Below are positions 23,360 to 41,215 of a stretch of DNA of 64,000 nt, piece after piece. Positions within the stretch are counted from its first letter, which is position 1. Each line of letters begins with the position of its first letter. Source of the stretch: a bacterium (lineage in GTDB: Bacteria; Planctomycetota; SZUA-567). The DNA is taken from the NCBI GenBank assembly GCA_003245715.1, contig QKCJ01000019.1:3119-67118 (forward strand), in the 5' to 3' direction. The position numbers and the translations under genes were made by a program. The notes under the pieces were generated by a model. It did not search any database and had not been told where the DNA came from. It saw nothing but the letters and a program-made list of their open reading frames with translations.

Positions 23360-23383
23360 ATTTTTAAAAAAAATTCCCTCTTC

Positions 23384-23397
23384 TTGACTTATATCAA
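23384..23397. promoter_or_regulatory. FNR/CRP-family-type palindrome TTGAC-TTAT-ATCAA
   Basis: Read directly. It matches the TTGAT-N4-ATCAA consensus at 9 of 10 half-site positions. It lies in the divergent region between the Crp/Fnr gene and the ferredoxin-like/hcp genes. Confidence 0.5.
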
Positions 23398-23567
23398 GGA
23401 CAATAAACCGACTAAATGATATTATACCTGTATCAAAAGCATAAGCAATGCAAAACAAGGAAAATAAAGCGACACAAAATATTCGGATAGAGTTGATATT
23501 AGAACAGTTTTTTGACTTTTGTGAAACAAAAAATTTGATAAGTTTTTAACATATAAGGAGAATCATC

Positions 23568-24296: not shown

Positions 24297-24302
24297 ACCG
24301 CC

Positions 24303-24333
24303 ATCCCGGCAGCACTGCAACCGCTGCCGGGAT
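24303..24333 (+). other. Perfect 11-bp intercistronic stem-loop between the ferredoxin-like gene and hcp
   Basis: atcccggcagc (24303-13) / gctgccgggat (24323-33) with a 9-nt loop. It is not directly followed by a U run, so it could be a partial terminator, an mRNA stability element or a processing element. Confidence 0.5.
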
Positions 24334-24480
24334 AATCACTAAAACCTGTTTTTTTATATTTCACAATTTACCGATGTATGCTACGATGAATTCGGGCAGA
24401 CACATCACAAATTTTTGACAGATTCATTTGAATACTGTCGGGTACACTGACCCCCAGAATTTGGGAAGAGGAGGAAGACT

Positions 24481-26097: not shown

Positions 26098-26122
26098 ATA
26101 AAAACCCAAGTCCAATAAAAAA

Positions 26123-26152
26123 AGCGGCAGGGATAATCCCCGCCGCTTTTTT
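26123..26152. terminator. Bidirectional terminator between convergent hcp and the Tad-locus terminal gene
   Basis: gcggcaggg / ccccgccgc stem (one mismatch), preceded by an A run and followed by a T run (aaaaaagcggcagggataatccccgccgctttttt). Confidence 0.8.
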
Positions 26153-26179: not shown

Positions 26180-28168
26180 CTATTCCTGATTAACTTTTCT
26201 TACGGCAATATTATTTTTACGCATCCACGCATCAATCCTGCCATAGAAATCATCCTCGGGAGAAAAGCAATCGCGCCCGTCATTTACCAATTTGTGCGCC
26301 ATGGAGTATTCTTTATTGATGTAAGACTGCACACCTTTGTTAAAGAGGATATTCCCTGTCTTATGCAGCGCGCCCAAGGCGTTTTTGACATCAACACCAT
26401 AATTCTTGGCTTTCTCAAGTAACGCTCTAGACAAGCGGTAATTCTCCCGGTTCATCGCCTTGACCGAAGCCTCCATCATCATCTGCCCCATCACTTCCGG
26501 CGGATACTGCTTGAGTTTGGTGACGGCATACTCGCGGTAACGATTGTCAGGATCTTTCTCGGTAAGAAGCATCACATTCCAGTGCTTCAGGGCACTCTCG
26601 ATATCGCCATCGTTCTCAATCTTATCGGCGATACCTTTTTCCTTTTCCATCTCAGCCCAGCGGCGCAGGATATCTTTGACTACTGCGTTATCCTTGTAAT
26701 GCGCATTATTCTGCAGCAGCTTATCCCTGCCAACCGTGTCGCCGTTACGATACAACGTCCCCATCTGCACGACAAAATGCCGAGCATTCAGATCGCTCAG
26801 GATTCCCGGAATTTCCGCCAGCACATCCGGATCATCAGGAAACCTCTGACTCAGGCTTTTAGCTATCAGCCGCGCAGAATCAATCTCGGCAGCACTCACT
26901 GACTCATGCGAAAGTTTGCGCACCTTGCGCAGTTCAACCTGAATATACTGCTTGTCACGCCAACTATTAAGCTTCTCAGCCAGCACCATATCCTTGCCGT
27001 TATGACCGAAAAACTCTTCCGCCCGTTTTATTGCCAGCGAATAATTACCGGATTTTGCCGCCGATTCCGCCTCCAGCTTTATCGCCACCAGACGGTCTTC
27101 ATTGACCTTGCTTATCATCCGGTTTACCGAAGGATAATACAGACTGTCAGGCGAGACCTTATTGTAAGCGGCAATCGCCTCTTCCCACTTATGGTCAAGC
27201 ATGAGATTATTGGCCTCGGAAAAATAACCTTTGGCCTTGATCTCTTTACGCAGACCCTTCTCAAGATCAATTGCAAAATCACGCAACTCAATTGTCAGGA
27301 TATTGGAATCAACAAGCTGGAGCAGTTTAAGCCTCAGGTCATTCCAGTCAGTTGAGGGATCAATCGCCGAACCGATTTTAGAATCATAATAAGGCTGGGC
27401 GACCTGAACAAAAAGCTTGCCTACACGCATCCGGTTGCCACTGGCTTTTTCATAACTCTCCTCGCCCTTCTTCCAGATGGCGATTGATGCCTTATAATTA
27501 CCAAGGCGAAAATCTTCAGAACCATTTACCATCTCTTTCCAGTATTTATCTTCAGGAGAAATACGGTTTCGCACCCGCGCCGCATCCGCGCTCTTCCCCA
27601 TATCCTTCAGATAAACCCAGGCAACCAGACCAAAGATCACCGCCAGCATCCCGATAAGTATCGGCAGACGTTTTTTCTCTACCGGTGCAGGCGGCTGAAC
27701 AACGCCACCGCCCACCGGACTGACCGGCGCCCGGAAAACTTCAACTGAATTAGCCGGTTCGGATTCATATTCGGCAAGGGCATATTCCCCGCCTTCTGAA
27801 GCCGGTGCCGGAGCAGGGGCGAGATCAAACTCATCGCCTGAAGCTTGCGGAGGCGGGGGCATATCAAAGCTGCTCAAGGCCGGCGAACTGTCCTCGATTG
27901 AAACGTACATGTTGCCAAGGCGCAACGTGTCACCATTTCCCAGATGCCCCTGGGTAACTTTCTTTCCATTAAGCACAGTCCCGTTACGGCTGAGAAGGTC
28001 ACGGAAACTTATCTCCTCAGCAGTAACGTCAATACGGATATGCTGCCCGGATATTGACGGGTCACGGATTACAATATCACAGTTTTTCGATCTGCCGATT
28101 ATGTAGTTGCCTTCCGTCAGATCCTTTGTAATGTTCTCACCATTGAGGTTATAACGCAACTTAATCAT
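26180..28168 (-). CDS. Bitopic FHA-domain protein with a large TPR-like extracytoplasmic domain; last gene of the Tad locus
   Basis: N-terminal FHA (IIGRSKNCDIVIRDPSISGQHIRI...LSRNGTVLNGKKV), Pro-rich linker, TM segment LPILIGMLAVIFGLVAWVYL, then about 470 aa with repeated xNYxxAI helical motifs. I prefer ATG 28168 (AGAGG RBS; ATGATTAA overlap with the upstream stop) over the GTG at 28192. Confidence 0.8.
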   Translation of the reverse strand: MIKLRYNLNGENITKDLTEGNYIIGRSKNCDIVIRDPSISGQHIRIDVTAEEISFRDLLSRNGTVLNGKKVTQGHLGNGDTLRLGNMYVSIEDSSPALSSFDMPPPPQASGDEFDLAPAPAPASEGGEYALAEYESEPANSVEVFRAPVSPVGGGVVQPPAPVEKKRLPILIGMLAVIFGLVAWVYLKDMGKSADAARVRNRISPEDKYWKEMVNGSEDFRLGNYKASIAIWKKGEESYEKASGNRMRVGKLFVQVAQPYYDSKIGSAIDPSTDWNDLRLKLLQLVDSNILTIELRDFAIDLEKGLRKEIKAKGYFSEANNLMLDHKWEEAIAAYNKVSPDSLYYPSVNRMISKVNEDRLVAIKLEAESAAKSGNYSLAIKRAEEFFGHNGKDMVLAEKLNSWRDKQYIQVELRKVRKLSHESVSAAEIDSARLIAKSLSQRFPDDPDVLAEIPGILSDLNARHFVVQMGTLYRNGDTVGRDKLLQNNAHYKDNAVVKDILRRWAEMEKEKGIADKIENDGDIESALKHWNVMLLTEKDPDNRYREYAVTKLKQYPPEVMGQMMMEASVKAMNRENYRLSRALLEKAKNYGVDVKNALGALHKTGNILFNKGVQSYINKEYSMAHKLVNDGRDCFSPEDDFYGRIDAWMRKNNIAVRKVNQE

Positions 28169-29453
28169 GATTGCCTCTGTTTCTTCTGACACTCTTTATT
28201 CGTTTTAAATTTATAATCCAGTTCTCAATCACCTGACGGTCAACACTCTCCTCATCCGGGATAATTGTCTTCGCTTCCTCAAGCAGCACAACCGCACTAT
28301 CAAGATCTGATGACCTGAAATTATTATCCGGCGGGAAGGCCGCAGCCATTGCTTCATCAAAGAGAGCGCAAAGCCTGTCCTTTAATTTCGCTTTCAAATT
28401 AAATGCCTCGACCGCTGCGTTACCACCACGCTCGGCATCCGCTGCCGGACCGTTATAAAGATCAGCCGCGCGCTGATACTGAACCCACGCGTCATATTCC
28501 TGCTTATCCTTGGCAAACCGTTGCGCCTGCGCCAGAGCGCTTTCCGCAAGCCGCCTGGCCTCCTCACGGGTTATGTCATCGGGTATACGGTAAGGGTTTA
28601 CACCTCTGCAGATAATCCTGAATGAACGCAGGAAATTACCTGCTTTATCCTGCAAGATCACCTTGGCTTCACCTTCCCTCGCGCCGGTTATCTCAAGCAT
28701 CCTGACCTTGGCGGTATTGGGATTTTTCTTGAGCCGCTCAAGGCTGGGCAGCAATAAGCCGCGGTAATCTTTTGCACGGATAATCTCCTGCTGCGACCCG
28801 GTGCTGCTGAGAATTTTGTAACGGTCAAAATCAACTGCGAAATTAACCACCTTCGGCTGATACGCCTTGACCATGGCAAACACCGTATTAGGGCGCGGGG
28901 AATTTGAAACATAATCAAAGAGATATATAACCCCGAAAATAAAAAGTACAAAGGCCAGGAGCTGGAAGAGAACACTCTTGCCCCCGTCAATACCGCTGCC
29001 AAGATCACCTGAAACCTGCACCGTCTGACCCGGCGCTGCCGGAACGCCAAGAGGCATATCCGGGCGCACCTGGCCAAGCTCTCCCGGAGGTGGCGTGTCA
29101 AAACCCGGCGCCGCGGCAAAAACCGTTGAACCAGTTGTCGCCAAAGCCCCGCCAATGGCCGCACGCACAATAAAAATCGCCTCACCTACCTGGAAGGTAA
29201 CCCCCGGCTCACCGATTGCCTCCTTGACCTTTTTGCCATTAACCTGCACCCCGTTCTGGCTGTCAAGGTCTACCATCCGCAAACCCTGCGCGTCGTTGAA
29301 AACCCGGCAGTGATTGCGCGAGACGCCCCGGACATTCTCAAGGCGTATCCCGCACTCAGCCGCGCGGCCAATAAGTGCCGACTCGCCCTGAATGTTATAA
29401 CAGGTACCGGCATCCGGCCCCGTGGTCAACTCCAGATAAAATTCATTCATCAT
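28161..29453 (-). CDS. Bitopic FHA-domain protein (cytoplasmic FHA, one TM segment, extracytoplasmic domain of unknown fold)
   Basis: FHA domain (ALIGRAAECGIRLENVRGVSRNHCRVF...LDSQNGVQVNGKKV) and TM segment VLFQLLAFVLFIFGVIYLF. The probable start is MMNEFYLEL (ATG 29453). The track ORF starts at a TTG (29489). Confidence 0.8.
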   Translation of the reverse strand: MMNEFYLELTTGPDAGTCYNIQGESALIGRAAECGIRLENVRGVSRNHCRVFNDAQGLRMVDLDSQNGVQVNGKKVKEAIGEPGVTFQVGEAIFIVRAAIGGALATTGSTVFAAAPGFDTPPPGELGQVRPDMPLGVPAAPGQTVQVSGDLGSGIDGGKSVLFQLLAFVLFIFGVIYLFDYVSNSPRPNTVFAMVKAYQPKVVNFAVDFDRYKILSSTGSQQEIIRAKDYRGLLLPSLERLKKNPNTAKVRMLEITGAREGEAKVILQDKAGNFLRSFRIICRGVNPYRIPDDITREEARRLAESALAQAQRFAKDKQEYDAWVQYQRAADLYNGPAADAERGGNAAVEAFNLKAKLKDRLCALFDEAMAAAFPPDNNFRSSDLDSAVVLLEEAKTIIPDEESVDRQVIENWIINLKRIKSVRRNRGNHD

Positions 29454-29541
29454 TTGTTCCTGTATTTTTATTTCCCGTGCAGCAACCAAAAGAACTTGTC
29501 TTACTGCACCGCCGCAAGCTGTGATAAATCACCCGGACACA

Positions 29542-29940
29542 TCATCTCAGGTTATTATTTTCCACACACCCGGCGGCTCTGAGTTCTGCACCAACCGTCA
29601 GCCCCGTCCTTGCCACACGCCCCGCCCTCAACTCCAGAACAGAATACGCCGCAAAGCATCCCGCCAGCCGCCAGGGCTTTAAATTCTCATATATTTTCAG
29701 AACTCTCAGCTCTCTTGAAAGAAACACCGCATCAATTGCAAAACGCATAAAAAACATATGGATACTGTTACACGGAACTATCAGTAATCCGCCATCCTCA
29801 TCCAGACCGTCACGGCCAAGCAGCCCCCGCATCCGGCTCAACGGATTATCCGCCACCTCAAGGTGTGAAAGCACAACCTCCGCACCACACATTAAACCCG
29901 CGCCCCTGAGCTTTGCCGGGTCAATCCGGAAAGCCGACAT
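29542..29940 (-). CDS. DUF192-family protein
   Basis: 132 aa. VADNPLSRMRGLLGRDGL...GLLIVPCNSIHMFFMRFAIDAVFL...LKPW matches my recollection of the DUF192/COG1430 pattern. The start lies 1 nt after the tadC stop. Confidence 0.7.
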   Translation of the reverse strand: MSAFRIDPAKLRGAGLMCGAEVVLSHLEVADNPLSRMRGLLGRDGLDEDGGLLIVPCNSIHMFFMRFAIDAVFLSRELRVLKIYENLKPWRLAGCFAAYSVLELRAGRVARTGLTVGAELRAAGCVENNNLR

Positions 29941-29941
29941 T

Positions 29942-30880
29942 CTAGCCCTTCCACATCAGAAAGATCGGCGCACCAATAATCACCACAATCGCCCCAAGGA
30001 TAAAGATCATAGGAAACAGCATCTTCACCGGCGCTTTCATCGCCTTCTCCTCGGCAATCTGACTGCGCTTCTCCCGCTGCTGTGCCGCCTGAATGCGCAG
30101 AACCACACCAAGTGATGAACCAAGCTCTTCCGCCTGAATCAGACTCGCCACAACCGTGCGCACCTCCTGCACGTCACAGCGCTCGGCAAAATCACGCAGC
30201 GCGTTTGATCTGGTTTTGCCAAGCTGGATCTCATGCAACATCAATGACAACTCCTGCCCCAGCGGACTCTTGCCGATCTTGCCGACAATCCGCGACAGCG
30301 CCGAGGTAAAATCCAGCCCTGCCTCCATTGCCAGCGTCAGCAGGTCGAGCGCGAACGGCAGTTGCCTTACGATACTTGTCTGGCGCAGACGAAGCTTATT
30401 GGTCAGCCAGCTCTTCCAGAGAAGCGTGCCGAAGATGAAAATAATAAACGCAAAATAAAGACCGGCAAATGATGTAACCGTCTCGGGTGACAGCATAAAG
30501 ACACCGGTCATCACCAGAGTCGTAAAGAGCATCCCGTAAAGTATGCCAAAACCGATAAACTCATCCGCGATCAGCCCCTCCGGACGGCCAGCAGCGACCA
30601 GCGTCCGCTCAATGCCGTCAGAAAAGCGGAAATAAAAAGTCGAGTTATTATCCCCGTGAAAAATCCCGCGTAGTGATCTGCCAATAACCCGCGCCATCGG
30701 CAGAAAGGATTTCATCAAACCCTCAGAGGTTTCAGTAACAATTATCTCATCATCCGCGCCCTGCTTCTGCGCTTTATAAATCCTGTGCAGAAAATGCACC
30801 AGCAGCCAGCTTGCAAAAAAGGCAAACCCGGCAGATGCCAGAATAATAAAAAACGGACTGGAAATAAATATCGCCTGCAT
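29942..30880 (-). CDS. tadC: Tad pilus inner-membrane platform protein TadC (T2SS-F family)
   Basis: 312 aa polytopic protein. LRQLPFALDLLTLAMEAGLDFTSALSRIV...LSLMLHEIQLGKTRSNALRDFAER is T2SSF-domain-like. It follows tadB. Confidence 0.85.
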   Translation of the reverse strand: MQAIFISSPFFIILASAGFAFFASWLLVHFLHRIYKAQKQGADDEIIVTETSEGLMKSFLPMARVIGRSLRGIFHGDNNSTFYFRFSDGIERTLVAAGRPEGLIADEFIGFGILYGMLFTTLVMTGVFMLSPETVTSFAGLYFAFIIFIFGTLLWKSWLTNKLRLRQTSIVRQLPFALDLLTLAMEAGLDFTSALSRIVGKIGKSPLGQELSLMLHEIQLGKTRSNALRDFAERCDVQEVRTVVASLIQAEELGSSLGVVLRIQAAQQREKRSQIAEEKAMKAPVKMLFPMIFILGAIVVIIGAPIFLMWKG

Positions 30881-30919
30881 CTGAACTTTCTATAAACCCG
30901 GCAGCACACGGCCGCGTTT

Positions 30920-31780
30920 TTAAATATCGATATTGATGATCTTGCGGATGAAAAACGCCGCCAGACCAATCAGACCACCGGCAAGAAAGAGCGCAATCCA
31001 CCCCTTCCATGTATGGAAGAGTGACTCAAACATAGCCGGCGCCACAAAATACAAACCGATACAAATCGCCACCGGCAACAAGCCCATGACAATCCCCTGA
31101 AGTTTTCCCTGCGCGGTCAGCGCCCTGATCTTGCCTTCAATACGCTGCCTCTCACGGATAAGCTGCGCGATATTATCGAAGACTTCCGTCAGGTTACCAC
31201 CGACATCACGGATAATTGAAATCGCCGTCACCACCAAATCCATATCATCAGACGGCATCCGCTTGTATAAATTAAAGAGCGCCTCCTCAACCGGCACACC
31301 AAGTCGCATCTCCTGACAGACCAGCCGCATCTCCTGATTCATTGGCTTGGGCATCTCACGGCTGATAAGCTCCAAAGCCTGCGGCAGTGAAAAACCCGCG
31401 CGCAGACTGTTACTCATATTCATCAGCGCATCCACAAGCTGCACCAGAAATAACTGGTCGCGCTTCTTCTTTAAAAAATTAAGCACAATCCGCGGCAGAA
31501 GATTGCCGAAAATGAAAAACGGAATCCCCACCAGCAGGTTACCGCTGATATAGGCAAAAAGCGCAAAAAGTACCAGTCCGCACATAAATCCAAGATACAG
31601 AATATTCTGCGCCGGCATATTAATGTACATCGAATCAAGCGTAGTCGCAGCGCCAGAGAGATAATTCTGCTGGTACTGCTGCCAGAAACGGCGCACCATG
31701 AAGATTCCGGCAAAGACCAGAATCGACCCGGCAACACCAGCACAGAGCAGCGCTATGGTTTCATGCGACAGACCAAACAT
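30920..31780 (-). CDS. tadB: Tad pilus inner-membrane platform protein TadB (T2SS-F family)
   Basis: 286 aa. LVDALMNMSNSLRAGFSLPQALELISREMPKP...EMRLGVPVEEALFNLYKRMPSDD is T2SSF-domain-like. The start shares 1 nt with the ATPase gene end. Confidence 0.85.
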   Translation of the reverse strand: MFGLSHETIALLCAGVAGSILVFAGIFMVRRFWQQYQQNYLSGAATTLDSMYINMPAQNILYLGFMCGLVLFALFAYISGNLLVGIPFFIFGNLLPRIVLNFLKKKRDQLFLVQLVDALMNMSNSLRAGFSLPQALELISREMPKPMNQEMRLVCQEMRLGVPVEEALFNLYKRMPSDDMDLVVTAISIIRDVGGNLTEVFDNIAQLIRERQRIEGKIRALTAQGKLQGIVMGLLPVAICIGLYFVAPAMFESLFHTWKGWIALFLAGGLIGLAAFFIRKIINIDI

Positions 31781-33435
31781 CAGCCTTCTCTTTCTTTAAA
31801 CATACTAAGGTCAACTTCAAGCCCGCGCTTGCGCATCTCCTGGACAAACTCAGGAATCTCGCCGGTCGCAGTATGATAACCCATCACCTTGCCCTCTTCA
31901 TCATAACCTTTCTGGCGGAATTCGAAGATATTCTGCAGGGTAATCACATCCCCCTGCATCCCCGTCACCGCCGAGACATGCGTGATCTTACGGCTGCCAT
32001 CAGCAAGACGCGCTGCCTGCACGATAAAATCAACCGCACTTGAAATCTGCTCGCGGATAGCCTGCGACGGCAACTCCATACCGGCCATCAGAACCAGCGT
32101 CTCCATACGCGAAAGCGCGTCTCTTGGATTATTGGCGTGCAGCGTGGTCAGTGATCCGTCATGACCGGTGTTCATCGCCTGCAGCATGTCAAGCGCCTCA
32201 CCGCCACGACATTCACCAACCACAATCCGGTCAGGCCGCATACGCAGACAGTTCTTGACCAGATCACGGATATTAACGGCGTTACGCCCTTCAAGGTTGG
32301 CCGGACGGCTTTCAAGGCGCACCACGTGCGGCTGCTGCAGCTGCAGTTCGGCCGAGTCCTCAACCGTGACAATACGTTCATCATGCGGGATGTAATTACT
32401 CGTAACATTAAGCAGCGTCGTCTTACCGGAACCGGTACCGCCGGAGATAACAATATTTGCGCGGTTCTTCACCGCCAGCGCCAGAAAATCGGCCATCGGC
32501 CTTGTCATACTGCCGAAATTAATCAGGTCATCAATGCGAAACGGAGTAGTCGCAAATTTTCGGATAGTCAGCGTCGGCCCCGACAGTGCCAGCGGTGGAA
32601 TAATCGCGTTGACACGACTGCCGTCAGGCAGACGCCCGTCAGCCATCGGCGTCGTCTCATCAATACGCCTACCGATCGGCGAAAGAATCCGGCGGATAAT
32701 GGAAACGACCTGCATGTCATCGGTAAACTGTTTTGACGATAGCGCGATCTTACCGTGTTTTTCAACATAAACCTTGTCCCACGCACAGACCATGATTTCA
32801 TCAACCTCAGGATCAGCCAAAAGCTCCTCAAGACAGCCAAGGCCAACCGCCTCGTCAACGATCTCCTTAACCAGCGCCTCCTGCGTCAGCCAGCCGGGAA
32901 GGGCGTGCGCGTACTCCTGAATAATTTTGCTGCAGACCTCAGTCGTCCGCAGGCGTAACTCCTCAAGCGAGCGCTGTGACATATCCTGCCGCTTGAGATC
33001 CATCCGTTCAATCAATATCGCGTGGATCTGCCGCTTGAGATCAACCGGCGTAACCAGACGCGGCTTATTCTCAACCGGCGGTTTTGGCTTGGGTTTTGCC
33101 GCAGGCTGGGGCGGGATACTGTTACCGCCACGTCCCGCATCACTGGCGCCAAGACGGATAATATAATTACCAAGCTGCAAAGAACAGCGCGGATCAAACA
33201 GCGTCGGACGGTCTATGCGGTGCCCGTTTATCAGCGTACCATTGCGGCTGCCAAGATCATGCACCGCGATCTTGTCACCATGGCGGCGGATCTCACAGTG
33301 ATTGCGGCTGACAGCTTCATCATCAAGAACTATCAGGTTGGCACTGTCCTTGCCGATACTGACCACTTCACCCGAAAAATCCACTGTCCTGGCCTGACCG
33401 CTCCTGCGGTCGGTAACCGTTATTACATCAGACAA
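31780..33435 (-). CDS. FHA domain fused to a CpaF/TadA-type secretion ATPase
   Basis: 551 aa. N-terminal FHA ([51 protein letters not shown]), linker [18 protein letters not shown], then an ATPase with Walker [15 protein letters not shown], Walker B-like [12 protein letters not shown] and the His-box region [15 protein letters not shown] start preceded by AAGGGG. Confidence 0.9.
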
Positions 33436-33477
33436 AAGCCAAACCCCTTATTTCATGTTACCTAAAAAAAACATCCA

Positions 33478-34272
33478 TTACTCAGCCGGGCGCAGACCCT
33501 TGAAATCCTCAGACAGGTCCCAATAAACATTAGGCTTCTGATACTCTTTCTCGCTGGGATCAAGCCCTTCAACCATCTTGGTCTCCGAAGGATTACGCAG
33601 AATCATCTGCAGCTGGATACCCGTGCGGCTGCCCTGCGCGTTGACCAGACGAAGCGCATCCGCCGGACGCAGCTCAAGGGTGACAGTCCTGTACATCCGC
33701 TTGTCAAAACGCGATTCATCCGCCTGCAGAATCTGGTTGTCAATAGCCAGAACCTTCGCCGCCTGCAGCAAATAATAACTCTTGGTGTAATCCCTGATTA
33801 TCTTGTCATCCTTCTTGACCGTACCGCCGGTGAGGACAACGTCGACATAATCACCGGGACGAATAAGTCCGGCCACACCCGCTACATTATCAACCCGGAT
33901 AGTCACCGCCCGCATTCCCGGCTGTACAGCCAGACGCGCCAGGCTCGCTTCTTTTTTGACATTAGTCATGAACTCTTCAAAGACCGGTCGTTTCGGGTCA
34001 AGATCACGCGAAGCAGTCTTGCCGAAAAAACGGTAACGCTCAACATAAGGGATCATACCCTGAACAACATAATCCTTGGGAATCATAACCGGCATACAGT
34101 CGCGGCTCTTAAGCGGCTCTCCACGATTGACTTTATTACGCACAGAGAGTATCTGCACCGGATCGGTCTTTTGCATGTGTTCGATCTTCTGCTCATTCAT
34201 CCAGCTATATACGCCAATTGCCGCAATCGCTCCAAGAGTCACCGACAATACCAATGCTAGTTTTGTGTTCAT
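33478..34272 (-). CDS. cpaB: Flp pilus assembly protein CpaB/RcpC family
   Basis: 264 aa. N-terminal TM segment LALVLSVTLGAIAAIGVYSW, a SAF-like segment (ILSVRNKVNRGEPLKSRD) and the RcpC-like GDYVDVVLTG motif. Position upstream of the ATPase gene. Confidence 0.8.
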   Translation of the reverse strand: MNTKLALVLSVTLGAIAAIGVYSWMNEQKIEHMQKTDPVQILSVRNKVNRGEPLKSRDCMPVMIPKDYVVQGMIPYVERYRFFGKTASRDLDPKRPVFEEFMTNVKKEASLARLAVQPGMRAVTIRVDNVAGVAGLIRPGDYVDVVLTGGTVKKDDKIIRDYTKSYYLLQAAKVLAIDNQILQADESRFDKRMYRTVTLELRPADALRLVNAQGSRTGIQLQMILRNPSETKMVEGLDPSEKEYQKPNVYWDLSEDFKGLRPAE

Positions 34273-34292
34273 ATAAATTCCCTGAAAAATTA

Positions 34293-34787
34293 TTACTCTT
34301 TAACCAACGGTACCGTAACAATACTTACCCGGAAATGGCTTCCTTTATCTGCCGGGAAAACCTGTAACGCCAGACTGAGATTGCCCAGCCTGTACATATC
34401 ACTCAAAGCCCCCGATCCCTGCGGCAACTTATTATTATATTTTTTCCACCCTGCTTTAGCAAGCTCAGTCTCATAGAATGCGCTAATTCTTTGCATTGGC
34501 AGTGGACTTGTGCATAAAAGCTGCAATCTTCTGGCGCCATTATCCTTGCCCCGCTCAAGCCGGCTGACCACACTTGTCTGCGGCGGCAGAAGAATCTCCT
34601 GCCAGTTAAAGTCCCTGGCCGCATCCTTTACAGCCTCCGCAACCACACCCTGAGAACCGCCGCCTGAATACATGCGCAAACCCAGACCGGAAGCCATATA
34701 CTCCCTGCCCAATAAAACAATACAGACAGCCCCCGCAAAAAAAGCAATGGCTGTCAGTGTTTTTACTGTTTTTTTACCAATCGGCAT
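34293..34787 (-). CDS. Hypothetical N-terminally anchored protein inside the Tad locus
   Basis: 164 aa. TM segment LTAIAFFAGAVCIVLL. No motif I recognise. Co-directional and tightly spaced with its neighbours. Confidence 0.55.
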   Translation of the reverse strand: MPIGKKTVKTLTAIAFFAGAVCIVLLGREYMASGLGLRMYSGGGSQGVVAEAVKDAARDFNWQEILLPPQTSVVSRLERGKDNGARRLQLLCTSPLPMQRISAFYETELAKAGWKKYNNKLPQGSGALSDMYRLGNLSLALQVFPADKGSHFRVSIVTVPLVKE

Positions 34788-34807
34788 AACTTAGCGCCTC
34801 ATGCAAA

Positions 34808-35719
34808 TCACCAATTCGGCGAATTAACCGAACTACCATGCAACACACCCACATCAACATAAGAACCGTCTATTTCACTGCTGGTCAGGGATGACGGAGC
34901 AACCGCACCGGCGGAAGTCTTATAAATGGTTGCCAGAGCAGATGAAAGCGAACTGACATCATCACCCCAGTCGCGCATATAGGGATTGTTTATTACCGCC
35001 CAGAAAGAACTCACATCACGCGGAAAAACCTTTATCCCCTCCTCCGAGCGCCAGGTCTGGGAGGTTGAAACCTTGCTCTCAAACGGCAAACGCCCACGCC
35101 CCAGAGGAAGCGCGTAGGAATAATTCGCCGTCGAGCTTTTATAATCTATCCAGTCGCCAAGAGACACCGATATCTGCGGCAGCACATCATCCTCATCAGT
35201 TATGTCAACGGAAATATCATCGCCCTCATTATACACTGTCGAGGTATCAAGATTCCCCATCAACCCCAACTGTGCTATCCGGCTTCCCGCCTGCGTACGC
35301 CTGACCTTATAGCCGCCTGAGCTGCTGTCAAAATACACCTGCGTTCCCGAAAGTTCAAACGCCCTCTGCATATCATCACCATTGCTGTCATAAGGCAAAA
35401 CCGGTTCATCATCCTCAGTAATACCCGCAACACTGTTGAAGTCTTCTTCATTGTCATAGGTAACCTGATCGCCGACGTAAGCCATACCCTTCATCTTCCC
35501 GAAGAAATATTCCGATTTCAGGCTCGTATCATTGAGTGTACTGCTGGTTGTAAAATACTTCACCGCCTCCTGCTTACCGGCAACCAGATGCCAGAAGAAG
35601 ATCGCCCCCATGATAATCAGAATATAGGGCAGCATGCAGATAACCAGTTCAATTAGAGCTGTCCCCTGATTGTTCTTCATTTGTCCTGTCCTTATATTCA
35701 AACCACTACCTCTGACCAT
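34808..35719 (-). CDS. TadE/TadF-like pseudopilin with a long C-terminal extension
   Basis: N-terminal QGTALIELVICMLPYILIIMGAIFFW fits the TadE-like signature (G-x-x-x-x-E followed by a hydrophobic helix). Start uncertain: TTG 35725, ATG 35719 or ATG 35680. Confidence 0.7.
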   Translation of the reverse strand: MVRGSGLNIRTGQMKNNQGTALIELVICMLPYILIIMGAIFFWHLVAGKQEAVKYFTTSSTLNDTSLKSEYFFGKMKGMAYVGDQVTYDNEEDFNSVAGITEDDEPVLPYDSNGDDMQRAFELSGTQVYFDSSSGGYKVRRTQAGSRIAQLGLMGNLDTSTVYNEGDDISVDITDEDDVLPQISVSLGDWIDYKSSTANYSYALPLGRGRLPFESKVSTSQTWRSEEGIKVFPRDVSSFWAVINNPYMRDWGDDVSSLSSALATIYKTSAGAVAPSSLTSSEIDGSYVDVGVLHGSSVNSPNW

Positions 35720-35721
35720 AA

Positions 35722-38700
35722 TCAATGACGCACCAGAGAATCATAAATACGGTTTTGCCAATTGAGACTCTTCCCGTTGTTTGTTCCCTGCTGCGGCGGC
35801 GCGGTGATATTATTCCACGAATTATTTGCCTGCTGGCTCTCATAAGACCAGGCATTATCCTTGGTATAGGCATTCTTCATCCAGCCGTCACGCTGCGAGT
35901 GATAATGATATCTCGCCGCCTCGGTATATTTATTGATAAGATAATCAGCAGGCGAGTTGATATCTTCGACCGTTTCTTCATACGGTTCAACATCACGCAC
36001 AAAGAGCGAGGTGTTAATCGGCACCATCTGCGCCGCCCAAACCGTCTCAAAAAGATTATAGCTGCTAGCCAGCCACTTCTGGCGGTAACCACGCATTTCA
36101 TAATTGGTAATCTGGTCAATTCCGTCAGGGTAGCCAATTGCCGCATTAGCCAGATCGCACGCGCCAGCCTTCAGATCCGACGGAAAGAGATTGTCATCAT
36201 AGTAGGCAAAATTAGTCAGATAGCCACCATCATCAGGCGCACGCATAAAGACCCGCGACGCAGCAAAGGCAAAATGCCCCGAGTTCCATTTATACTTGTT
36301 GCCATCCTCAGTCAGATAAAGCGGATTACCCTGGCCGATATCTTTTCTTTTCTGCGATATATCATCCCGGTTTCTGCCAAGCAGCGGCGCCAGCCAACCC
36401 ATACGTTCGGACTTGAAGACGCAGACAGCCAGAGGCTTGCGGAATACCTGCGTTGTAAGCTCAAGCGGTTTTGCATAGATGGAACCGAATTTCAAAGTTG
36501 AAATTGTCGTTCCCATACCGACATGATCATTTAAAAATCCGGCCGTGCTGGCAGTACTCGCAAGCCAATTGGCCCCGCCGTGATAGGCATACCTGCGCAC
36601 CACTGCCGGAGCAACTTTGATTAGCGCTTTCATCTGCTCCCAGGTCGGGCCGGTTCCGGCAGCGTCAGCAGCATAAAAGTCTGCAGAGGCCAGATCCGGA
36701 TTGACTGAAATAAACGGATATTTCGGCTGATGCTTGAACATTGCAACCGCACCATACGGATCATAGATACACAAATAAACCACACCGCTATCAACATATG
36801 CGAAGAACGGCCTGGTTATGGTCACGCCTTCATCGATAGTTATTAAATCCAGCTTATCAACATTCATCAGCGCATAGATCTTTCTGCGCAAATCAGCAAG
36901 CTGCTCGTCAGCAAGATTTGTATACTTGGCAATAACATAAAAACCGCAAGAATCCTTATTGCCGCTGCTGATGGCAATCCCGGCATTGATATCCGAGTCA
37001 TCATCATGCTCAGGCGTAGCAGTCGTTGTCAGACTGCGGTAAAGATTCCAGAGCGGATTATCAGAAAGATGATAAGCAATATCTGAGAGTGTGCCATAGC
37101 GGTTATTGTAAAGATCAACCAGAGTGTCGCCGGTGCAGATGCGGCGTTTGAGATACACCGTACCATCAACATTAACCCCCGGGTCATAACTTGACTTCGC
37201 TGTCACCGAATAGGTATACGCACTCGTCCCCCCGTCAGCCTTGCCGTCACCATTGATATCGCTGTTAGCCAGCTGACCCGTACTCAGGTCAAAGAAGCCT
37301 CCAAACCCGCCACTGGCTGTAGCTTCATAATTGCTGCGCGGTGTTCTTGGCGGACAGGCCCAGAGAGCGCCGTTATTAAGTAAAAGATCCCAGACACTCT
37401 TCCCAAACTCCTGCCAGAGGGTATTATCGCTCTTCCAGTTGTCAAGCAGTGTCGAATTATCATCGCGCGGATTATACTGCCTCGGCACAGACGACACCGG
37501 CACATACCCCTCAAGAAGCGAGTCACTGAGAATTTTTTCATGCACCAGCCCGCGCAGTCCAAGCTTGAGAAAACTCATATCCTGCATCCAGCTGCCACTG
37601 TCTGAAATTTCATACTTCCAGCGCCCGTCATTGGTCAGCGTCGCATCAGGATATTCAAAAATCCTGTGCTCGCGCCGCCCCTGGTTGCCAGTAAGCGAAC
37701 GCCAATTACGGCTCGGACTGGAAGTCGTCAAACCCCTGACCCATGCCTCAACATCATCCGCCCTGATCCAGCCGATTGCGCTGTTAAAATGATAATGCAC
37801 TACCAGCGAATTGTTGAAAGTGGCATAAACTTTACCGCTCAGATACATCTCAAAAGGCCAGCTCAAGCGCATGCCGCTGATATAACCCGGAAAAGACGCC
37901 GGCACAGTAAGCCCGTTAATTGTCACCGAACCTTCATAGCTTGTGTCATTGACACTGAAATTACCATCATCATCAAGCTCATATTTATCACCGTCAATAA
38001 TACTGCCGGTATCAGTCTTCTCAACCACATCCCGCGCATCCGTACCACTGCCGCCACCAGGAACATAACTCCCCGGCTCAACCACCACCATCACCACCGT
38101 ACCGCCATCACTCTCGGCGTAGGTGGTTATCTTATAATCTTTTGAATTGATTGAAAACTCATACTCACCCGAGCAATAAACCGTACCCTTGTATTTTGTC
38201 GCCCCCGAAACGCCGCTTGCTTTCTTAAAGGGCGAATAGTCTGTGGACTTTATCGTCGCATCAAGCGTATTACTGCTGGAACTACCGTCACTGTCCACAC
38301 TGTCAGGCTCATCAAGAAGAATATGCCACTCATTGTAAGTCCCGTTATCAGCTACAGACTTGTCAACCACTACGTGCAGCATCTCCATGGAGTATCCCGG
38401 ATCTGTTTCACTCGTTACCTTCCAGCCCTTGCTGCTTGATAATGTCGAAGGGTTAAGCTCCAGAACCGCGTCATGAAATGAGCCGCCCTCAGGATAAAAT
38501 TCCCAGGCGGAATTTCCACTGTCGCCGGGGTTGGGAAATATCGCAATACGCAAAGGCTTGTTGACACTGCCGCTCTCGGGTTTCTGAAAATAATTTGCAT
38601 GCGCAGACTGATAGACCTGATTCTTAATCAGCATCGGCGCGGCAATGGCAATCAGGCGCTGCGCCTTAATCAGGTGCATATACCACTCTTCACCATTACT

Positions 38701-39129
38701 GGCCCAGGAATAATTCCCCGCGCAAGAAGGATCATTAATGCTGGCAGCCTTTAAACCGAGGGTTACTCCGGACGAGTCGATGGCTGTTGACGGGTCCCAC
38801 CAGGCCTGCGAGACGCTCTTCTTGGTACGCTCCTGAATATTAGAGACTGAAGCCACTACCGCCTTGCCATACAAAACTGCCATGCCTTCATTAAGCCACG
38901 CCATCTGCGCCAGACAGTCAGCCTCAACCGCCGCGCCGGAATACGCCGCAGAGTCCGCCGCATTCTGCAGACGCATCTGGTCAGTTGTGATGTCGCCGAT
39001 ACCGACAATCATCCCCACCATTATAACCAGAATGAAAAAGGTGAATGCAGTAAAGAGCATCGACTGTCCAGACTCATCGCGCCTGAATGCCAGGATCTTG
39101 CCGTAAAATTCCGCTCTCTTACCGTTCAT
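35722..39129 (-). CDS. Giant TadG-like pseudopilin or adhesin candidate (1135 aa)
   Basis: N-terminal RRDESGQSMLFTAFTFFILVIMVGMIVGIGDITTDQMRLQNAADSAAYSGA matches the TadE/G-like N-terminal domain seen in TadG proteins. The remaining roughly 1050 aa match nothing I recognise except one DINGDGKADGG Ca-binding-like loop. Confidence 0.75.
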   Translation of the reverse strand: MNGKRAEFYGKILAFRRDESGQSMLFTAFTFFILVIMVGMIVGIGDITTDQMRLQNAADSAAYSGAAVEADCLAQMAWLNEGMAVLYGKAVVASVSNIQERTKKSVSQAWWDPSTAIDSSGVTLGLKAASINDPSCAGNYSWASNGEEWYMHLIKAQRLIAIAAPMLIKNQVYQSAHANYFQKPESGSVNKPLRIAIFPNPGDSGNSAWEFYPEGGSFHDAVLELNPSTLSSSKGWKVTSETDPGYSMEMLHVVVDKSVADNGTYNEWHILLDEPDSVDSDGSSSSNTLDATIKSTDYSPFKKASGVSGATKYKGTVYCSGEYEFSINSKDYKITTYAESDGGTVVMVVVEPGSYVPGGGSGTDARDVVEKTDTGSIIDGDKYELDDDGNFSVNDTSYEGSVTINGLTVPASFPGYISGMRLSWPFEMYLSGKVYATFNNSLVVHYHFNSAIGWIRADDVEAWVRGLTTSSPSRNWRSLTGNQGRREHRIFEYPDATLTNDGRWKYEISDSGSWMQDMSFLKLGLRGLVHEKILSDSLLEGYVPVSSVPRQYNPRDDNSTLLDNWKSDNTLWQEFGKSVWDLLLNNGALWACPPRTPRSNYEATASGGFGGFFDLSTGQLANSDINGDGKADGGTSAYTYSVTAKSSYDPGVNVDGTVYLKRRICTGDTLVDLYNNRYGTLSDIAYHLSDNPLWNLYRSLTTTATPEHDDDSDINAGIAISSGNKDSCGFYVIAKYTNLADEQLADLRRKIYALMNVDKLDLITIDEGVTITRPFFAYVDSGVVYLCIYDPYGAVAMFKHQPKYPFISVNPDLASADFYAADAAGTGPTWEQMKALIKVAPAVVRRYAYHGGANWLASTASTAGFLNDHVGMGTTISTLKFGSIYAKPLELTTQVFRKPLAVCVFKSERMGWLAPLLGRNRDDISQKRKDIGQGNPLYLTEDGNKYKWNSGHFAFAASRVFMRAPDDGGYLTNFAYYDDNLFPSDLKAGACDLANAAIGYPDGIDQITNYEMRGYRQKWLASSYNLFETVWAAQMVPINTSLFVRDVEPYEETVEDINSPADYLINKYTEAARYHYHSQRDGWMKNAYTKDNAWSYESQQANNSWNNITAPPQQGTNNGKSLNWQNRIYDSLVRH

Positions 39130-39209
39130 GGGATTTCCCTGAAAATTTGCCCCGACTTTTTATCCAACCAACCCCGTCACAAAAAATGGGCTATTTAAAA
39201 AAACACCCT

Positions 39210-39896
39210 CTAGTCTTTATAATTATAAACATCCGACCCCGGCGCCGTATCAATATCAGCCTCACGCTTCATGATATGCTGCCTGGTTATCAGATAATGC
39301 ACCAGATCATGACCTTTTTTCGATTTTAAGACTTCAATCCCGCCATTACTCTCAGACGCACCCGCAAAGTTGCGCCCCTGCGTCGTGTCAACCTTGGACT
39401 GCGGCAGAACCATCTGCATAACCCTGTCAACCACCGGGATCAGCAGTTCCTGTTTAAAGGTCAGTCTGGTGATTATCAGCTCCTGCGTACCGATTTCATC
39501 CGAATCAAATGTCAGACTGATCTTCGCCGCCGCCACACCACTGCCCCGCAGGTAGCCCCAGCCCGGGATATAAATATTTTCACTACTTTCACCGGCGATA
39601 CCGTGAAAGGCCAGCGGAGAGAGGGTGATCTGCGCAACCGGTTTGATATATTCCTCAAGCGAGTATGACGTTGAACCGACCGTTACCTTCTGTGAAGAAT
39701 TGTAATTGACCAGCGCCGCGCGCGCGCAGCGGTAGGTGGCAAAATTGACAACCAGCGAGGAGGCCATCAAAAGCATTATTTGGATCAGCCCGAAGGTGAT
39801 AAATAACTGAAATGGGAAAACGACGGCAAACTCAGCCAAAGCCTGTCCGTCGCTTTCCGTCTCTGTGAAAAAATTCCTCAGCTTACCAGCTATCAT
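39210..39896 (-). CDS. tadE: TadE-like pseudopilin
   Basis: 228 aa. DGQALAEFAVVFPFQLFITFGLIQIMLL is a canonical TadE-like N-terminus. Confidence 0.8.
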   Translation of the reverse strand: MIAGKLRNFFTETESDGQALAEFAVVFPFQLFITFGLIQIMLLMASSLVVNFATYRCARAALVNYNSSQKVTVGSTSYSLEEYIKPVAQITLSPLAFHGIAGESSENIYIPGWGYLRGSGVAAAKISLTFDSDEIGTQELIITRLTFKQELLIPVVDRVMQMVLPQSKVDTTQGRNFAGASESNGGIEVLKSKKGHDLVHYLITRQHIMKREADIDTAPGSDVYNYKD

Positions 39897-40026
39897 CTGT
39901 AAACTCCCAAATAATAAAATTCCCCTCAGCCTCGGAATTATTTTTTACTGCCCCACGCCCTGACAAATACCCGCAGGACACAAGGCAGTAAATCCGGATA
40001 GACAACCCGGCCCGTTCCCGCCAGCC

Positions 40027-40644
40027 CTAACCCACCGGCATAAACGGCAGCGCATAACCATTGCTATAAAAGAGCCAGACCGTCATAAGCACTCCCGCAC
40101 CGATTGCCACCGCGTACGGAATCGTCACCGGCGCCCCCAGCTCCTCATCGTCTTTCTCGCGTTTTTTAATCAGCACCATCGCCCGCAGAGACCTGCGCAG
40201 ACCACGCCGCATCTGCTTACTGTAAAGCAGGCAGATCAGCGCCAGCACCGCCCCCGCAACCGCACTGTTAAAGAGTACCCACAAGGAAAAACGCAAACCG
40301 GTAAGCGCGCCGATAGCCGCCGCCAGCTTCGCGTCACCCGCACCCATCCCGCCCGTCATGTAGGCAATGAAAAACGGAATGAATAACGCCAGCAGCCCCA
40401 TAACCGAATCCGCAAGCGTAATCCCCTGGTCATACTCGGAGCTTAAGACGTCAGCCGTGAAAACCCCTACCCCGCCGCGGACATACGCCAGAACCAGCCC
40501 GCCAACGAGCGCAATAAGAACCGGAAGGTTAAATATCTTCCGGCGCAGCAGATCCGTCGCCGCCGCTTGAAAAATCAGGCCAAAAAGCAGCACAACCTGC
40601 AAGAGCGCCGGAATATCATGCAAATCCACCGAAGCCACAATCAT
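40027..40644 (-). CDS. tadV: Prepilin peptidase, A24 family (TadV/CpaA type)
   Basis: 205 aa polytopic protein. The two catalytic Asp contexts are AAATDLLRRKIFN and GGMGAGDAKLAAAIG. It overlaps the flp stop by 4 nt. Confidence 0.85.
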   Translation of the reverse strand: MIVASVDLHDIPALLQVVLLFGLIFQAAATDLLRRKIFNLPVLIALVGGLVLAYVRGGVGVFTADVLSSEYDQGITLADSVMGLLALFIPFFIAYMTGGMGAGDAKLAAAIGALTGLRFSLWVLFNSAVAGAVLALICLLYSKQMRRGLRRSLRAMVLIKKREKDDEELGAPVTIPYAVAIGAGVLMTVWLFYSNGYALPFMPVG

Positions 40645-40850
40645 TCAGTGCTGTCATAATTTTCATTGGCTTCCTGAAGCTCATTACCAATGTTCTGGAA
40701 AGTCTCTTTACTCTGCTCACCGATAAACTTGATAGCGCCGATAGCGATAAGGGCGATCATGGCAACGATAATTGCGTATTCAGTCATGGTCTGACCGCGC
40801 TGATTCTTACGCTTCTTGGATTCTTCGAGCTTCTGCTTGTTAACCTTCAT
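40641..40850 (-). CDS. flp: Flp-family type IVb prepilin
   Basis: 69 aa. Processing motif RG/QTMTEYAIIVAMIALIAIGAI (G/xxxxEY followed by a hydrophobic helix). GGAGGAAG RBS. Confidence 0.9.
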   Translation of the reverse strand: MKVNKQKLEESKKRKNQRGQTMTEYAIIVAMIALIAIGAIKFIGEQSKETFQNIGNELQEANENYDSTE

Positions 40851-40939
40851 TTTACTTCCTCCACAAAAATACCGTTCCCGGTAACCCGCCGCTCTGCGGC
40901 AAAAATAATCTACCCCAAAACAAAATCTTTAATCTGCAA

Positions 40940-41215
40940 CTATGGAAATGGCAAAACAATAATCTTGACCAGATTCATATAAAAATCGCCAAGACCACCC
41001 ATAAACACCCCGACCGCACCGATCAGCCCCAGCATAATCATCGCAATCAGAAGGGCATACTCAACTATGGCCTGACCCGAATTGTTGCAGCCCCGCCGAA
41101 CCTTGTCGGATTTTCTGCAACCTGTAATGTCGGATTTTTCAACAACTGTGGTTTTTTCCAACATTATATTCACCGGCCTTTTTTCCAAAAACACCTGTTT
41201 TTCAGGCTTTTTCAC
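40940..41215 (-). CDS. flp: Second Flp-family prepilin with an unusually long leader
   Basis: SG/QAIVEYALLIAMIMLGLIGAVGVF motif. The leader is 47 aa from ATG 41215, or 29 aa if the start is the internal MLEKTT. Confidence 0.8.
   Translation of the reverse strand: MKKPEKQVFLEKRPVNIMLEKTTVVEKSDITGCRKSDKVRRGCNNSGQAIVEYALLIAMIMLGLIGAVGVFMGGLGDFYMNLVKIIVLPFP

Follow-up and report, generated by a model that had tools for sequence, protein, structure and literature searches.

Here we describe a 14-gene Tad/Flp pilus locus on the minus strand of a 64-kb window (the whole stretch of 64,000 nucleotides analysed, from contig QKCJ01000019.1 of a member of the Planctomycetota). The 14 genes form one operon that encodes the filament and the inner-membrane and cytoplasmic parts of the pilus. 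Its motor ATPase, CpaF, is fused to an FHA domain, its last two genes encode FHA-domain membrane proteins, designated FHA430 and FHA662, and no secretin, TadZ or TadD is encoded alongside. Across a set of 86 Tad loci, an FHA domain on CpaF and a TadZ gene were mutually exclusive. The genes are listed below in the order in which they follow one another from flp1 to FHA662, together with the terminator behind them.

26180-41215, minus strand: 14-gene Tad/Flp locus, from open reading frame (ORF) calls
40940-41215, minus strand: flp1, Flp-type prepilin, ORF drawn from a GTG, with the ATG at 41164 as the likelier start
40641-40850, minus strand: flp2, Flp-type prepilin; Flp_Fap (PF04964) 37.8 bits, cut-off 32.2; cleavage motif G/QTMTEY
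40027-40644, minus strand: tadV/cpaA, A24 prepilin peptidase, 205 amino acids (aa); Peptidase_A24 (PF01478) 50.6 bits
39210-39896, minus strand: TadE-like minor pilin, 228 aa; Pfam TadE (PF07811) 24.6 bits, cut-off 22.9; N-terminal hydrophobic helix
35722-39129, minus strand: giant TadG-like minor pilin, 1135 aa; Pfam Tad (PF13400) 36.5 bits, cut-off 22.3, residues 21-67
34808-35725, minus strand: TadF-like minor pilin, 305 aa; weak Pfam TadE match, 18.4 bits, below cut-off
34293-34787, minus strand: bitopic or secreted protein, 164 aa, with a conserved FY..L...GW core
33478-34272, minus strand: cpaB/rcpC, periplasmic alignment protein; NCBIfam TIGR03177 (equivalog) 146.9 bits, cut-off 71; Pfam RcpC 87 bits
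31780-33435, minus strand: CpaF/TadA motor ATPase with an FHA domain and an intrinsically disordered region (IDR); Pfam FHA 64 bits, T2SSE 215.6 bits
30920-31780, minus strand: tadB, platform protein; Pfam T2SSF 77.5 bits
29942-30880, minus strand: tadC, platform protein; Pfam T2SSF 66.3 bits
29542-29940, minus strand: DUF192 protein; Pfam DUF192 79.2 bits
28161-29453, minus strand: FHA430, 430 aa from a corrected start; Pfam FHA 44 bits; exact match to database protein P0123
26180-28168, minus strand: FHA662, 662 aa from a corrected start; Pfam FHA 62 bits; exact match to database protein P0128
26117-26152, both strands: bidirectional intrinsic terminator with an A7 run, a GC-rich hairpin and a T6 run

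A first-pass annotation, made from the letters of the window, had described 14 co-directional genes with tiny gaps or overlaps; its coordinates and all the junctions it quoted proved exact, and Pfam and NCBIfam assignments agreed with its gene identities. The tadV start overlaps the flp2 stop in an ATGA at 40644-40641, the cpaF stop and tadB start share 1 nucleotide at 31780, a gap of 1 nucleotide at 29941 separates tadC from the DUF192 gene, and the FHA430/FHA662 junction at 28168-28161 reads ATGATTAA. All intergenic gaps in the operon are of at most 130 nucleotides. The 3' end of the operon is the terminator at 26117-26152, which is common to the convergent hcp gene and folds with a dG of -21.5 and -25.3 kcal/mol on the two strands. 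A consensus scan for promoters and terminators within the operon gave no enrichment over shuffled sequences, and an Rfam scan of the window returned no matches.

Every part by which a Tad/Flp (type IVc) system is recognized is present: prepilins, an A24 peptidase, CpaF with two single-T2SSF proteins, CpaB, and TadE/F/G minor pilins. The locus thus almost certainly encodes a Tad pilus machine. Some of the smaller assignments are more qualified. Flp1 reaches only 18.4 bits with Pfam Flp_Fap, below the cut-off; its cleavage motif, G/QAIVEY, was read from the sequence, and orthologues were found in four metagenomic relatives (L084, L086, L088 and L089). Since the TadE score of the 305-aa protein falls below the cut-off, its TadF-like label relies on its position, which is kept in relatives, and on its pilin-like N-terminal helix. 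The 1135-aa TadG-like protein has orthologues of 1031-1132 aa in L084, L086, L088 and L089 and, by analogy with KilN/TadG (PMC12075869), is probably the backbone of a tip complex. The 164-aa protein gave no match in Pfam, NCBIfam, PHROGs or PDB; its position and FY..L...GW motif are nevertheless kept in six relatives. A DUF192 homologue occurs in 35 of the 86 Tad loci, in many phyla, and is a common accessory gene after tadC. For the FHA-CpaF protein, more than 8000 homologues of the same architecture were found, the nearest named ones being called CpaF/TadA in metagenome-assembled genomes (MAGs) labelled 'Planctomycetota bacterium', names that were the basis for assigning the host to this phylum in the analysis; the best match among species-representative genomes shares 51% identity.

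The first-pass annotation had proposed comparing gene order in related genomes, and the order does recur. All 14 genes are colinear in the independent metagenomic contigs L088, L089 and L084, with protein identities of 26-76% (CpaF: 76%, 72% and 67%, respectively), so the cluster is more than a chance assembly of neighbours. In L082, L085, L086 and L091 the cassette is kept for the parts that their contigs cover. Hidden Markov models (HMMs) built in this work found no secretin or TadZ in the loci of any of these subclade relatives. A further contig, L081 (CpaF identity 72%), holds a reduced and rearranged version at 7386-13508, comprising an FHA430-like protein, a small FeThRed_B protein, PhoU, FHA-CpaF, TadB and TadC, with no pilins, CpaB, DUF192 or FHA662 nearby.

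The absences stated for our locus refer to the 64-kb window of one contig. Within it, the first-pass statement that secretin, TadZ and TadD are missing in cis held up both in library scans and with our own profiles. No ORF of the locus matched the secretin family PF00263, and a Tad-secretin HMM (39 sequences, run with --max) gave only noise over all window ORFs (E of at least 1.4). The best score of the TadZ HMM was a mere 30 bits, on a receiver domain, and a KGGxGxT regular expression found nothing in the window. Of the profiles built here, that for secretins was anchored by a single secretin confirmed with Pfam (in L023) and that for TadZ by the Walker A motif. No TadD-type TPR lipoprotein was found, the only TPR-like domain being the periplasmic part of FHA662. 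We also considered that a divergent secretin, TadZ or TadD might hide in the 164-aa protein, the 305-aa protein or the FHA proteins, as the first-pass annotation had allowed. This was rejected: the 164-aa and 305-aa proteins had no Pfam, NCBIfam or PHROGs match, the secretin and TadZ HMMs gave noise only, and sequence and profile searches of the PDB were empty. FHA662 was ruled out as a TadD orthologue by its inner-membrane anchor behind an FHA domain. A monoderm host as the reason for the missing secretin was set aside, given nearest named relatives in the Planctomycetota and a TolC-like OEP protein in a relative's locus; it was not directly tested.

FHA domains and their exclusion of TadZ

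All three FHA domains keep the SxxH and NG motifs, as first reported. FHA430 and FHA662 also carry the GR motif, whereas the corresponding residues in CpaF are GK, followed by SRNH and NG. The CpaF lysine is a family trait, found in 111 of 120 homologues, and the Ser, His and Asn residues that contact phosphothreonine (pThr) are invariant in 118-120 of the same 120, the Gly being likewise invariant or almost so. A Pro/Lys/Ala-rich, disordered linker connects the FHA domain of CpaF to the ATPase.

In both FHA430 and FHA662 a single hydrophobic helix follows a Pro/Ala-rich linker, which places the FHA domain in the cytoplasm and the C-terminal domain in the periplasm. FHA430 consists of a cytoplasmic FHA domain, a disordered linker, one transmembrane (TM) helix (approximately residues 170-190) and a periplasmic domain composed of a beta-rich part and a helical bundle. 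The structure predictions suggested in the first-pass annotation succeeded for one of the two proteins. An AlphaFold2 (AF2) model of FHA662 from a 27-sequence alignment reached a mean predicted local distance difference test (pLDDT) score of 86.6 and comprises an FHA domain (residues 1-95), a disordered linker (96-167), a TM helix (169-200) and an all-alpha repeat of about 20 helices (205-651). In the model of FHA430, from a three-sequence alignment, only the C-terminal helices, a bundle of about 130 residues, were confident, and Foldseek searches with it returned FHA domains and weak TPR-like helices only, none at E of 0.001 or better.

The FHA domain of the FHA662 model superposes on those of FhaA, GarA/OdhI, Bdellovibrio DgcB and Sulfolobus ArnA with TM scores of 0.8-0.95 (Foldseek, E approximately 3e-7), YscD being ranked lower. 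Since FHA matches saturated the list, the periplasmic all-alpha domain obtained no fold beyond 'TPR-like'. FHA662 itself has no Pfam TPR match, and its orthologues match only marginally (TPR_2, 27.4 bits; TPR_14, 26.8 bits). Thus, of the FHA-TM-TPR layout first read for the last gene, the FHA domain and TM helix are borne out, and the TPR part depends on these orthologue matches and on the modelled repeat; with both in hand, 'TPR-like' appears a fair description. Word-indexed searches retrieved only two to three relatives each for FHA430 and FHA662. An exhaustive search among 1.84 billion proteins yielded 32 representative clusters for the FHA662 periplasmic-domain family, nearly all of 630-690 aa and with the same layout.

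To place the locus among other Tad loci, we scored 86 loci (80 from species-representative genomes, plus the metagenomic relatives) with the profiles built in this work, TadZ-like proteins being defined by the deviant Walker A motif KGGxGxT. Within 10 kb on either side of cpaF, TadZ was present in none of the 31 loci with an FHA domain on CpaF, whereas it was present in 49 of the 55 loci lacking one and absent from 6. The two features are therefore mutually exclusive in this set (Fisher p = 1e-17). Gene order agrees: TadZ-type loci have TadZ either as the immediate upstream neighbour of cpaF or as a fusion with it, whereas in FHA-type loci the slot upstream of cpaF holds a secretin or cpaB. 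Extra FHA genes accompany 14 of the 31 FHA-type loci and 1 of the 55 others, and Hanks-type kinases lie near 9 of the 31 compared with 1 of the 55. The extra FHA proteins of Lentisphaerota occupy the same position, after tadC or DUF192, and have the same FHA-linker-TM layout as ours.

A secretin gene is found directly upstream of cpaF in 19 of the 31 FHA-type loci, which include sister loci of Lentisphaerota, Myxococcota and Proteobacteria; that of the Victivallales locus L023 is the Pfam-confirmed one. No secretin accompanies any FHA-type locus of the Planctomycetota subclade, the window among them, and the same holds for the Lentisphaeria locus L018, for three further MAGs and for two contigs that are short. 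In a neighbour-joining (NJ) tree of ATPase cores from which the FHA domain had been removed, FHA-CpaFs fall in one clade that runs across Beta- and Gammaproteobacteria, Myxococcota, Lentisphaerota and Planctomycetota. In this tree, calculated without bootstrap, the window shares a super-clade with the Myxococcota loci L005, L008 and L032 and stands on a separate Planctomycetota branch; M. xanthus itself was not in the set.

The census contained several further arrangements. TadZ-CpaF fusions of approximately 720-840 aa, with KGGxGK[ST] near the N-terminus, occur in L019, L021, L022, L024, L030, L040, L056, L013 and L033. Five Planctomycetaceae/Pirellula MAG loci (L055, L058, L069, L075 and L077) have a CpaF without an FHA domain and neither TadZ nor secretin within 10 kb on either side; they form a clade of their own in the ATPase tree and are a further type of planctomycetal Tad locus with a reduced set of parts. 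The L018 locus (13944-16966) reads cpaB, FHA-cpaF, tadB, tadC, DUF192, an FHA-TM protein of 560 aa and a 447-aa protein with four PEGA domains. With no secretin within 10 kb, it is another secretin-less FHA-type locus, outside the Planctomycetota. The Myxococcota MAG locus L008 (14587-17915), like L028 and L032, has another T2SSE-type ATPase gene some kb downstream of FHA-CpaF; a stretch containing three FHA domains precedes the L008 copy or is fused to it.

A linked kinase and candidate phospho-sites

In four more distant relatives a fifteenth gene, next after the FHA662 orthologue, codes for a Hanks-type kinase that is soluble and about 530 aa long (L082:9219-10820, L084:16465-18066, L085:9834-11396 and L091:8191-9297). 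The FHA662 orthologues of these kinase-bearing loci (L082:7237-9195, L084:14159-16219, L085:7883-9823 and L091:6001-8010) carry in their linkers the motif [DE]-E-T-P-x3-4-[SN]-F-[VLI]-P, hereafter EETP. The motif is present in all four loci with the kinase and in none of the three without it (the window, L088 and L090). L089 is intermediate, in that the threonine is kept and the next gene encodes an HtrA-like protease. This co-variation nominates the EETP threonine as a candidate kinase substrate and FHA ligand. A second candidate phospho-site may lie in CpaF itself, where a T-P-[VI]-[ED]-L-K motif marks the end of the linker at its junction with the helical bundle; among 120 homologues (P0001-P0120) the threonine is kept in 77 and the proline in 105, and the window protein has the threonine at residue 129 (33040-33060). 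The kinases of the relatives also contain a weak PilZ-like region (16-19 bits, cut-off 22.5) and a winged-helix-like C-terminus, the former being a hint of cyclic di-GMP input to the Tad switch.

In the window and its nearest relatives (the window subclade) no kinase follows FHA662 wherever the downstream DNA is known. The first-pass annotation had noted the lack of a Ser/Thr kinase or PP2C phosphatase in the window, and our scan of window ORFs of at least 120 aa (nearly all the non-nested ones) likewise found none. These data suggest that the window subclade has lost the EETP/kinase switch. Phospho-control is well supported, from sequence comparison, for the FHA-type lineage. Here, with no kinase gene ahead of the strong terminator that closes the operon and with the candidate threonine lost, it is less certain, and the case for the window locus is the weaker one. 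Whether phospho-regulation still operates in this organism we regard as an even question.

Proposed mechanism, alternatives and surrounding genes

On balance, we find it probable that the locus is a Tad pilus operon of the FHA-CpaF lineage, in which FHA proteins serve as the organiser in place of TadZ, control by a kinase belongs to the lineage, and the secretin is encoded elsewhere. By homology, TadV would cleave the two Flp pilins and the three minor pilins, TadB and TadC would form the platform, CpaB would act as a periplasmic alignment cage, and CpaF would power extension and retraction. The minor pilins, including the 1135-aa protein, may form a priming tip complex, in analogy with KilLMN/TadEFG. 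Exclusivity, topology and synteny all suggest that an FHA scaffold stands in for the TadZ/CpaE ring that surrounds CpaF and positions it. In such a scaffold one FHA domain would be tethered to CpaF by the disordered linker, and the other two would sit on bitopic FHA430 and FHA662, whose TPR-like domains would reach into the periplasm in a layout like that of SctD/PrgH. We lean towards the view, drawn from these comparisons, that this scaffold is a functional substitute for TadZ. In the lineage, the kinase encoded by the next gene may phosphorylate linker threonines, the best candidate being EETP of FHA662, and the FHA domains could read these pThr sites so that the motor is recruited or released. 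In the window subclade, a kinase acting in trans on other sites, or a phospho-independent interaction, would have to take this role. The first-pass proposal that FHA domains and Ser/Thr phosphorylation replace TadZ is thus favoured by the exclusivity and by the kinase of the relatives, and its phosphorylation half is weakened by what the window lacks.

Several points weigh against this reading. In FHA662 of the window (linker at 27670-27890), as in L088, P0129, P0130, P0132 and P0134/L090, the EETP threonine is replaced, the sequences being EGGEYALAEY, DNDNYALAEY and similar, and neither kinase nor phosphatase is encoded in the 64 kb. The FHA domain of CpaF has a lysine where canonical FHA domains carry the phosphate-binding arginine. 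The structural model of FHA430 is unreliable, with a pLDDT of 46.6. Similarity to an FHA-CpaF was the criterion by which the 86 loci were chosen, only 10 kb on either side was covered and some contigs are short, so that a distant TadZ or secretin is possible. The NJ tree is a quick one with no support values, and two TadZ-fused outliers (L013 and L056) lie inside its FHA clade. A 2025 review (PMC12428579) calls the Kil FHA proteins only 'promising candidates' for signalling. Finally, with no secretin located, the crossing of the envelope is left unexplained.

The last point could be taken at face value, if the filament were truly independent of a secretin in a diderm host and either used a non-secretin conduit or worked as a periplasmic endopilus or piston, with the periplasmic domains of FHA430 and FHA662 spanning the envelope. 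No secretin was found in the window, within approximately 10 kb in seven subclade relatives or in L018; sister loci keep one by cpaF, which makes its absence from the operon a derived, clade-wide trait; and two large, clade-specific periplasmic domains occur just where the secretin is missing. However, the absence refers to a 64-kb window, CpaB is retained, whose Caulobacter counterpart is linked to the secretin through CpaI, and a 1135-aa tip pilin implies surface exposure. We therefore consider a secretin-independent filament quite unlikely. Its extended form is more doubtful still: a diderm Planctomycetota clade in which the two FHA-TM-TPR-like proteins replace both the TadZ ring and the secretin-pilotin pair and couple a Ser/Thr-phosphorylation switch to an alternative envelope route, the window subclade having become kinase-independent by putting acidic residues and a tyrosine at the pThr site. 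Since the Kil genes occupy two separate clusters, and secretins are found both in sister FHA-type loci and in other Planctomycetota Tad loci of the sample (L043, L044, L066 and L074), a secretin encoded in trans, elsewhere in the genome, is likeliest, and the genomic comparison gives it a good probability. The lack of a secretin gene in the operon would then most likely reflect a split locus.

A different possibility concerns the FHA domains themselves, which could be phospho-independent structural modules that oligomerise into a ring, as in SctD/PrgH of type III secretion systems (T3SS), with no kinase signalling here. All three match the YscD cytoplasmic-domain family PF16697, and the missing kinase and PP2C genes, the linker threonine lost in the subclade and the lysine of the CpaF FHA domain would all fit such a role. 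Against it, the pThr-contact residues are nearly invariant among CpaF homologues, GR, Ser, His and Asn are kept in both membrane proteins, relatives have a kinase within the operon, and structural searches put genuine pThr-binding FHA domains at the top of the list, ahead of YscD; we hold it to be unlikely. That the machine is a predatory, contact-dependent killing apparatus equivalent to Kil, and not an adhesion pilus, we judge very improbable. The FHA-rich parts list and gene order are those of Kil, the ATPase belongs to the same broad clade, and the giant, variable TadG-like tip protein resembles KilN. Yet non-predatory Beta- and Gammaproteobacteria, such as Acidithiobacillus and Thauera, are rich in FHA-CpaF loci, the Planctomycetota branch of the NJ tree is apart from the Myxococcota branch, no needleless T3SS or toxin genes lie in the window, and FHA430 and FHA662 resemble Myxococcota FHA proteins in the FHA domain only. 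An FHA-organised Tad pilus with a secretin encoded elsewhere remains the reading we prefer.

The genes around the operon give some information on the host. Convergent to it, at 22691-26097, are genes for a regulator of the Crp/Fnr type, a protein with a 4Fe-4S ferredoxin domain and a hybrid-cluster protein (Prismane, 557 bits). Along with PFOR and PPDK in other parts of the window, they suggest that the host lives anaerobically. On the other side, rbfA (45046-45513) lies about 4 kb upstream of the flp genes, separated from them by PCMT (41306-41968) and two apparent cobalamin-biosynthesis genes (42145-43649, judged by eye); in L089, rbfA (723-1118) is directly upstream. Further away, at 54587-55387, two antisense ORFs of 252 and 251 aa overlap almost fully and match no Pfam family.

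Comparison with known systems

The closest described system is the Kil Tad-like apparatus of Myxococcus xanthus (Seef et al. 2021, PMC8460266), the only studied member of the FHA-CpaF lineage. It has an FHA-fused ATPase, KilF, described as 'a single ATPase' (no TadZ), no TadD, and an over-representation of FHA proteins. Its cluster 1 encodes an FHA protein, a peptidase, the secretin KilC, KilF and KilD (FHA+TPR), and its cluster 2 the minor pilins, Flp, KilB(CpaB), KilG, KilH, MXAN_4649 (FHA, PrgH-like) and MXAN_4648 (FHA+TPR) (PMC8460266). Our locus shares with Kil the FHA domain on a CpaF-type ATPase, the lack of TadZ and TadD, the order CpaB, two platform genes, FHA protein, FHA+TPR protein, and the Flp pilins with TadE/F/G-like minor pilins, one of them giant (Herrou et al. 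2025, PMC12075869). In the Kil-type locus L005, a downstream FHA protein also has the FHA-linker-TM layout. The differences are equally clear. Kil is split in two clusters, with the short, N0-less secretin KilC beside KilF, whereas the window has one operon and no secretin; the window operon has DUF192; the similarity of FHA430 and FHA662 to Kil and other Myxococcota FHA proteins is limited to the FHA domain; and the host is a planctomycete, with no killing function indicated. In L005 (an Archangium MAG, 2088-4367), the KilD-like two-FHA protein downstream of the KilF-like CpaF contains a clear hydrophobic segment at approximately residues 302-320; the Kil paper (PMC8460266) describes KilD as a cytoplasmic protein.

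With the classical Tad/Cpa systems of Aggregatibacter, Caulobacter and Pseudomonas (rcp/tad), the locus has in common Flp, TadV, TadE/F/G, CpaB/RcpC, CpaF/TadA and TadB/TadC, and the order of pilins, peptidase and then the rest. It differs from them in lacking the RcpA/CpaC secretin, the TadZ/CpaE ring protein and TadD/CpaD/CpaI, in the FHA domain and IDR on its CpaF, and in two extra FHA membrane proteins. Six dimers of Caulobacter CpaE, a component called ubiquitous, encircle CpaF as a ring, and CpaB links to the secretin through CpaI (PMC13170226). The domain architecture of the window CpaF is identical to that of 'class III' CpaF (FHA-IDR-3HB-NTD-CAD; Nat Commun 2025, PMC12019362), including a Pro/Lys/Ala-rich linker. 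That class was described as mostly betaproteobacterial and was not linked to the loss of CpaE/TadZ, whereas here it extends to Planctomycetota, Lentisphaerota and Myxococcota and is perfectly anticorrelated with TadZ. The TadZA fusion of Bdellovibrio (bioRxiv 10.64898/2026.07.08.737194), to which the TadZ-CpaF fusions of our census correspond, likewise has an N-terminal organiser module joined to its Tad ATPase through a flexible linker; that module is the ParA/MinD-like TadZ and not FHA, and a secretin is present.

Beyond pili, SctD/YscD/PrgH of the T3SS and Myxococcus GltG also combine a cytoplasmic FHA domain, a single TM helix and a periplasmic domain. In the type VI secretion system (T6SS) Fha/TagH (PpkA/PppA) and in Sulfolobus ArnA (archaellum), a Hanks kinase controls assembly of the machine. 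The window FHA domains match these nanomachine scaffold families below cut-off; with TIGR02500, used here to test for SctD/PrgH-like proteins, the score is a mere 23 bits, where 86 is the cut-off. The topology agrees with that of SctD/PrgH, whereas no periplasmic ring-building motif was detected, the periplasmic part of FHA662 being all-alpha and that of FHA430 poorly modelled. SctD, T6SS Fha, GltG and ArnA scaffolds are analogues and not the same machine family.

The first-pass annotation had asked whether such an FHA-containing Tad locus was already a catalogued subtype, and in part it was: the architecture itself is known from Kil and from class III CpaF. New here are the exclusivity of FHA and TadZ, the FHA-CpaF clade, the subclade without a secretin in cis and the co-occurrence of kinase and EETP; full-text literature searches found, within the library searched, no description of FHA-type Tad loci in Planctomycetota or of FHA/TadZ exclusivity. 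A deep Tad lineage that spans phyla appears to swap the 'ubiquitous' TadZ/CpaE for FHA domains, often with a kinase in cis, and this swap offers a testable answer to the role of the unexplained Kil FHA proteins. The co-variation of EETP and kinase nominates a specific phospho-site and provides, as a comparison, a variant that has lost the kinase in nature. The phylum is diderm and its envelope unusual, and the lack of a secretin in cis throughout the clade draws attention to how pili may cross the planctomycetal outer membrane, although a split locus is its likeliest cause. Kil-like systems were reported by the Kil authors as confined to predatory delta-proteobacteria, and our census indicates that the architecture is not so confined. 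Collectively, these comparisons point to the window locus as a Planctomycetota member of the FHA-CpaF/Kil-class Tad branch, distinguished by its single operon, its clade-specific FHA-TM-TPR-like proteins and its lack of a secretin in cis.

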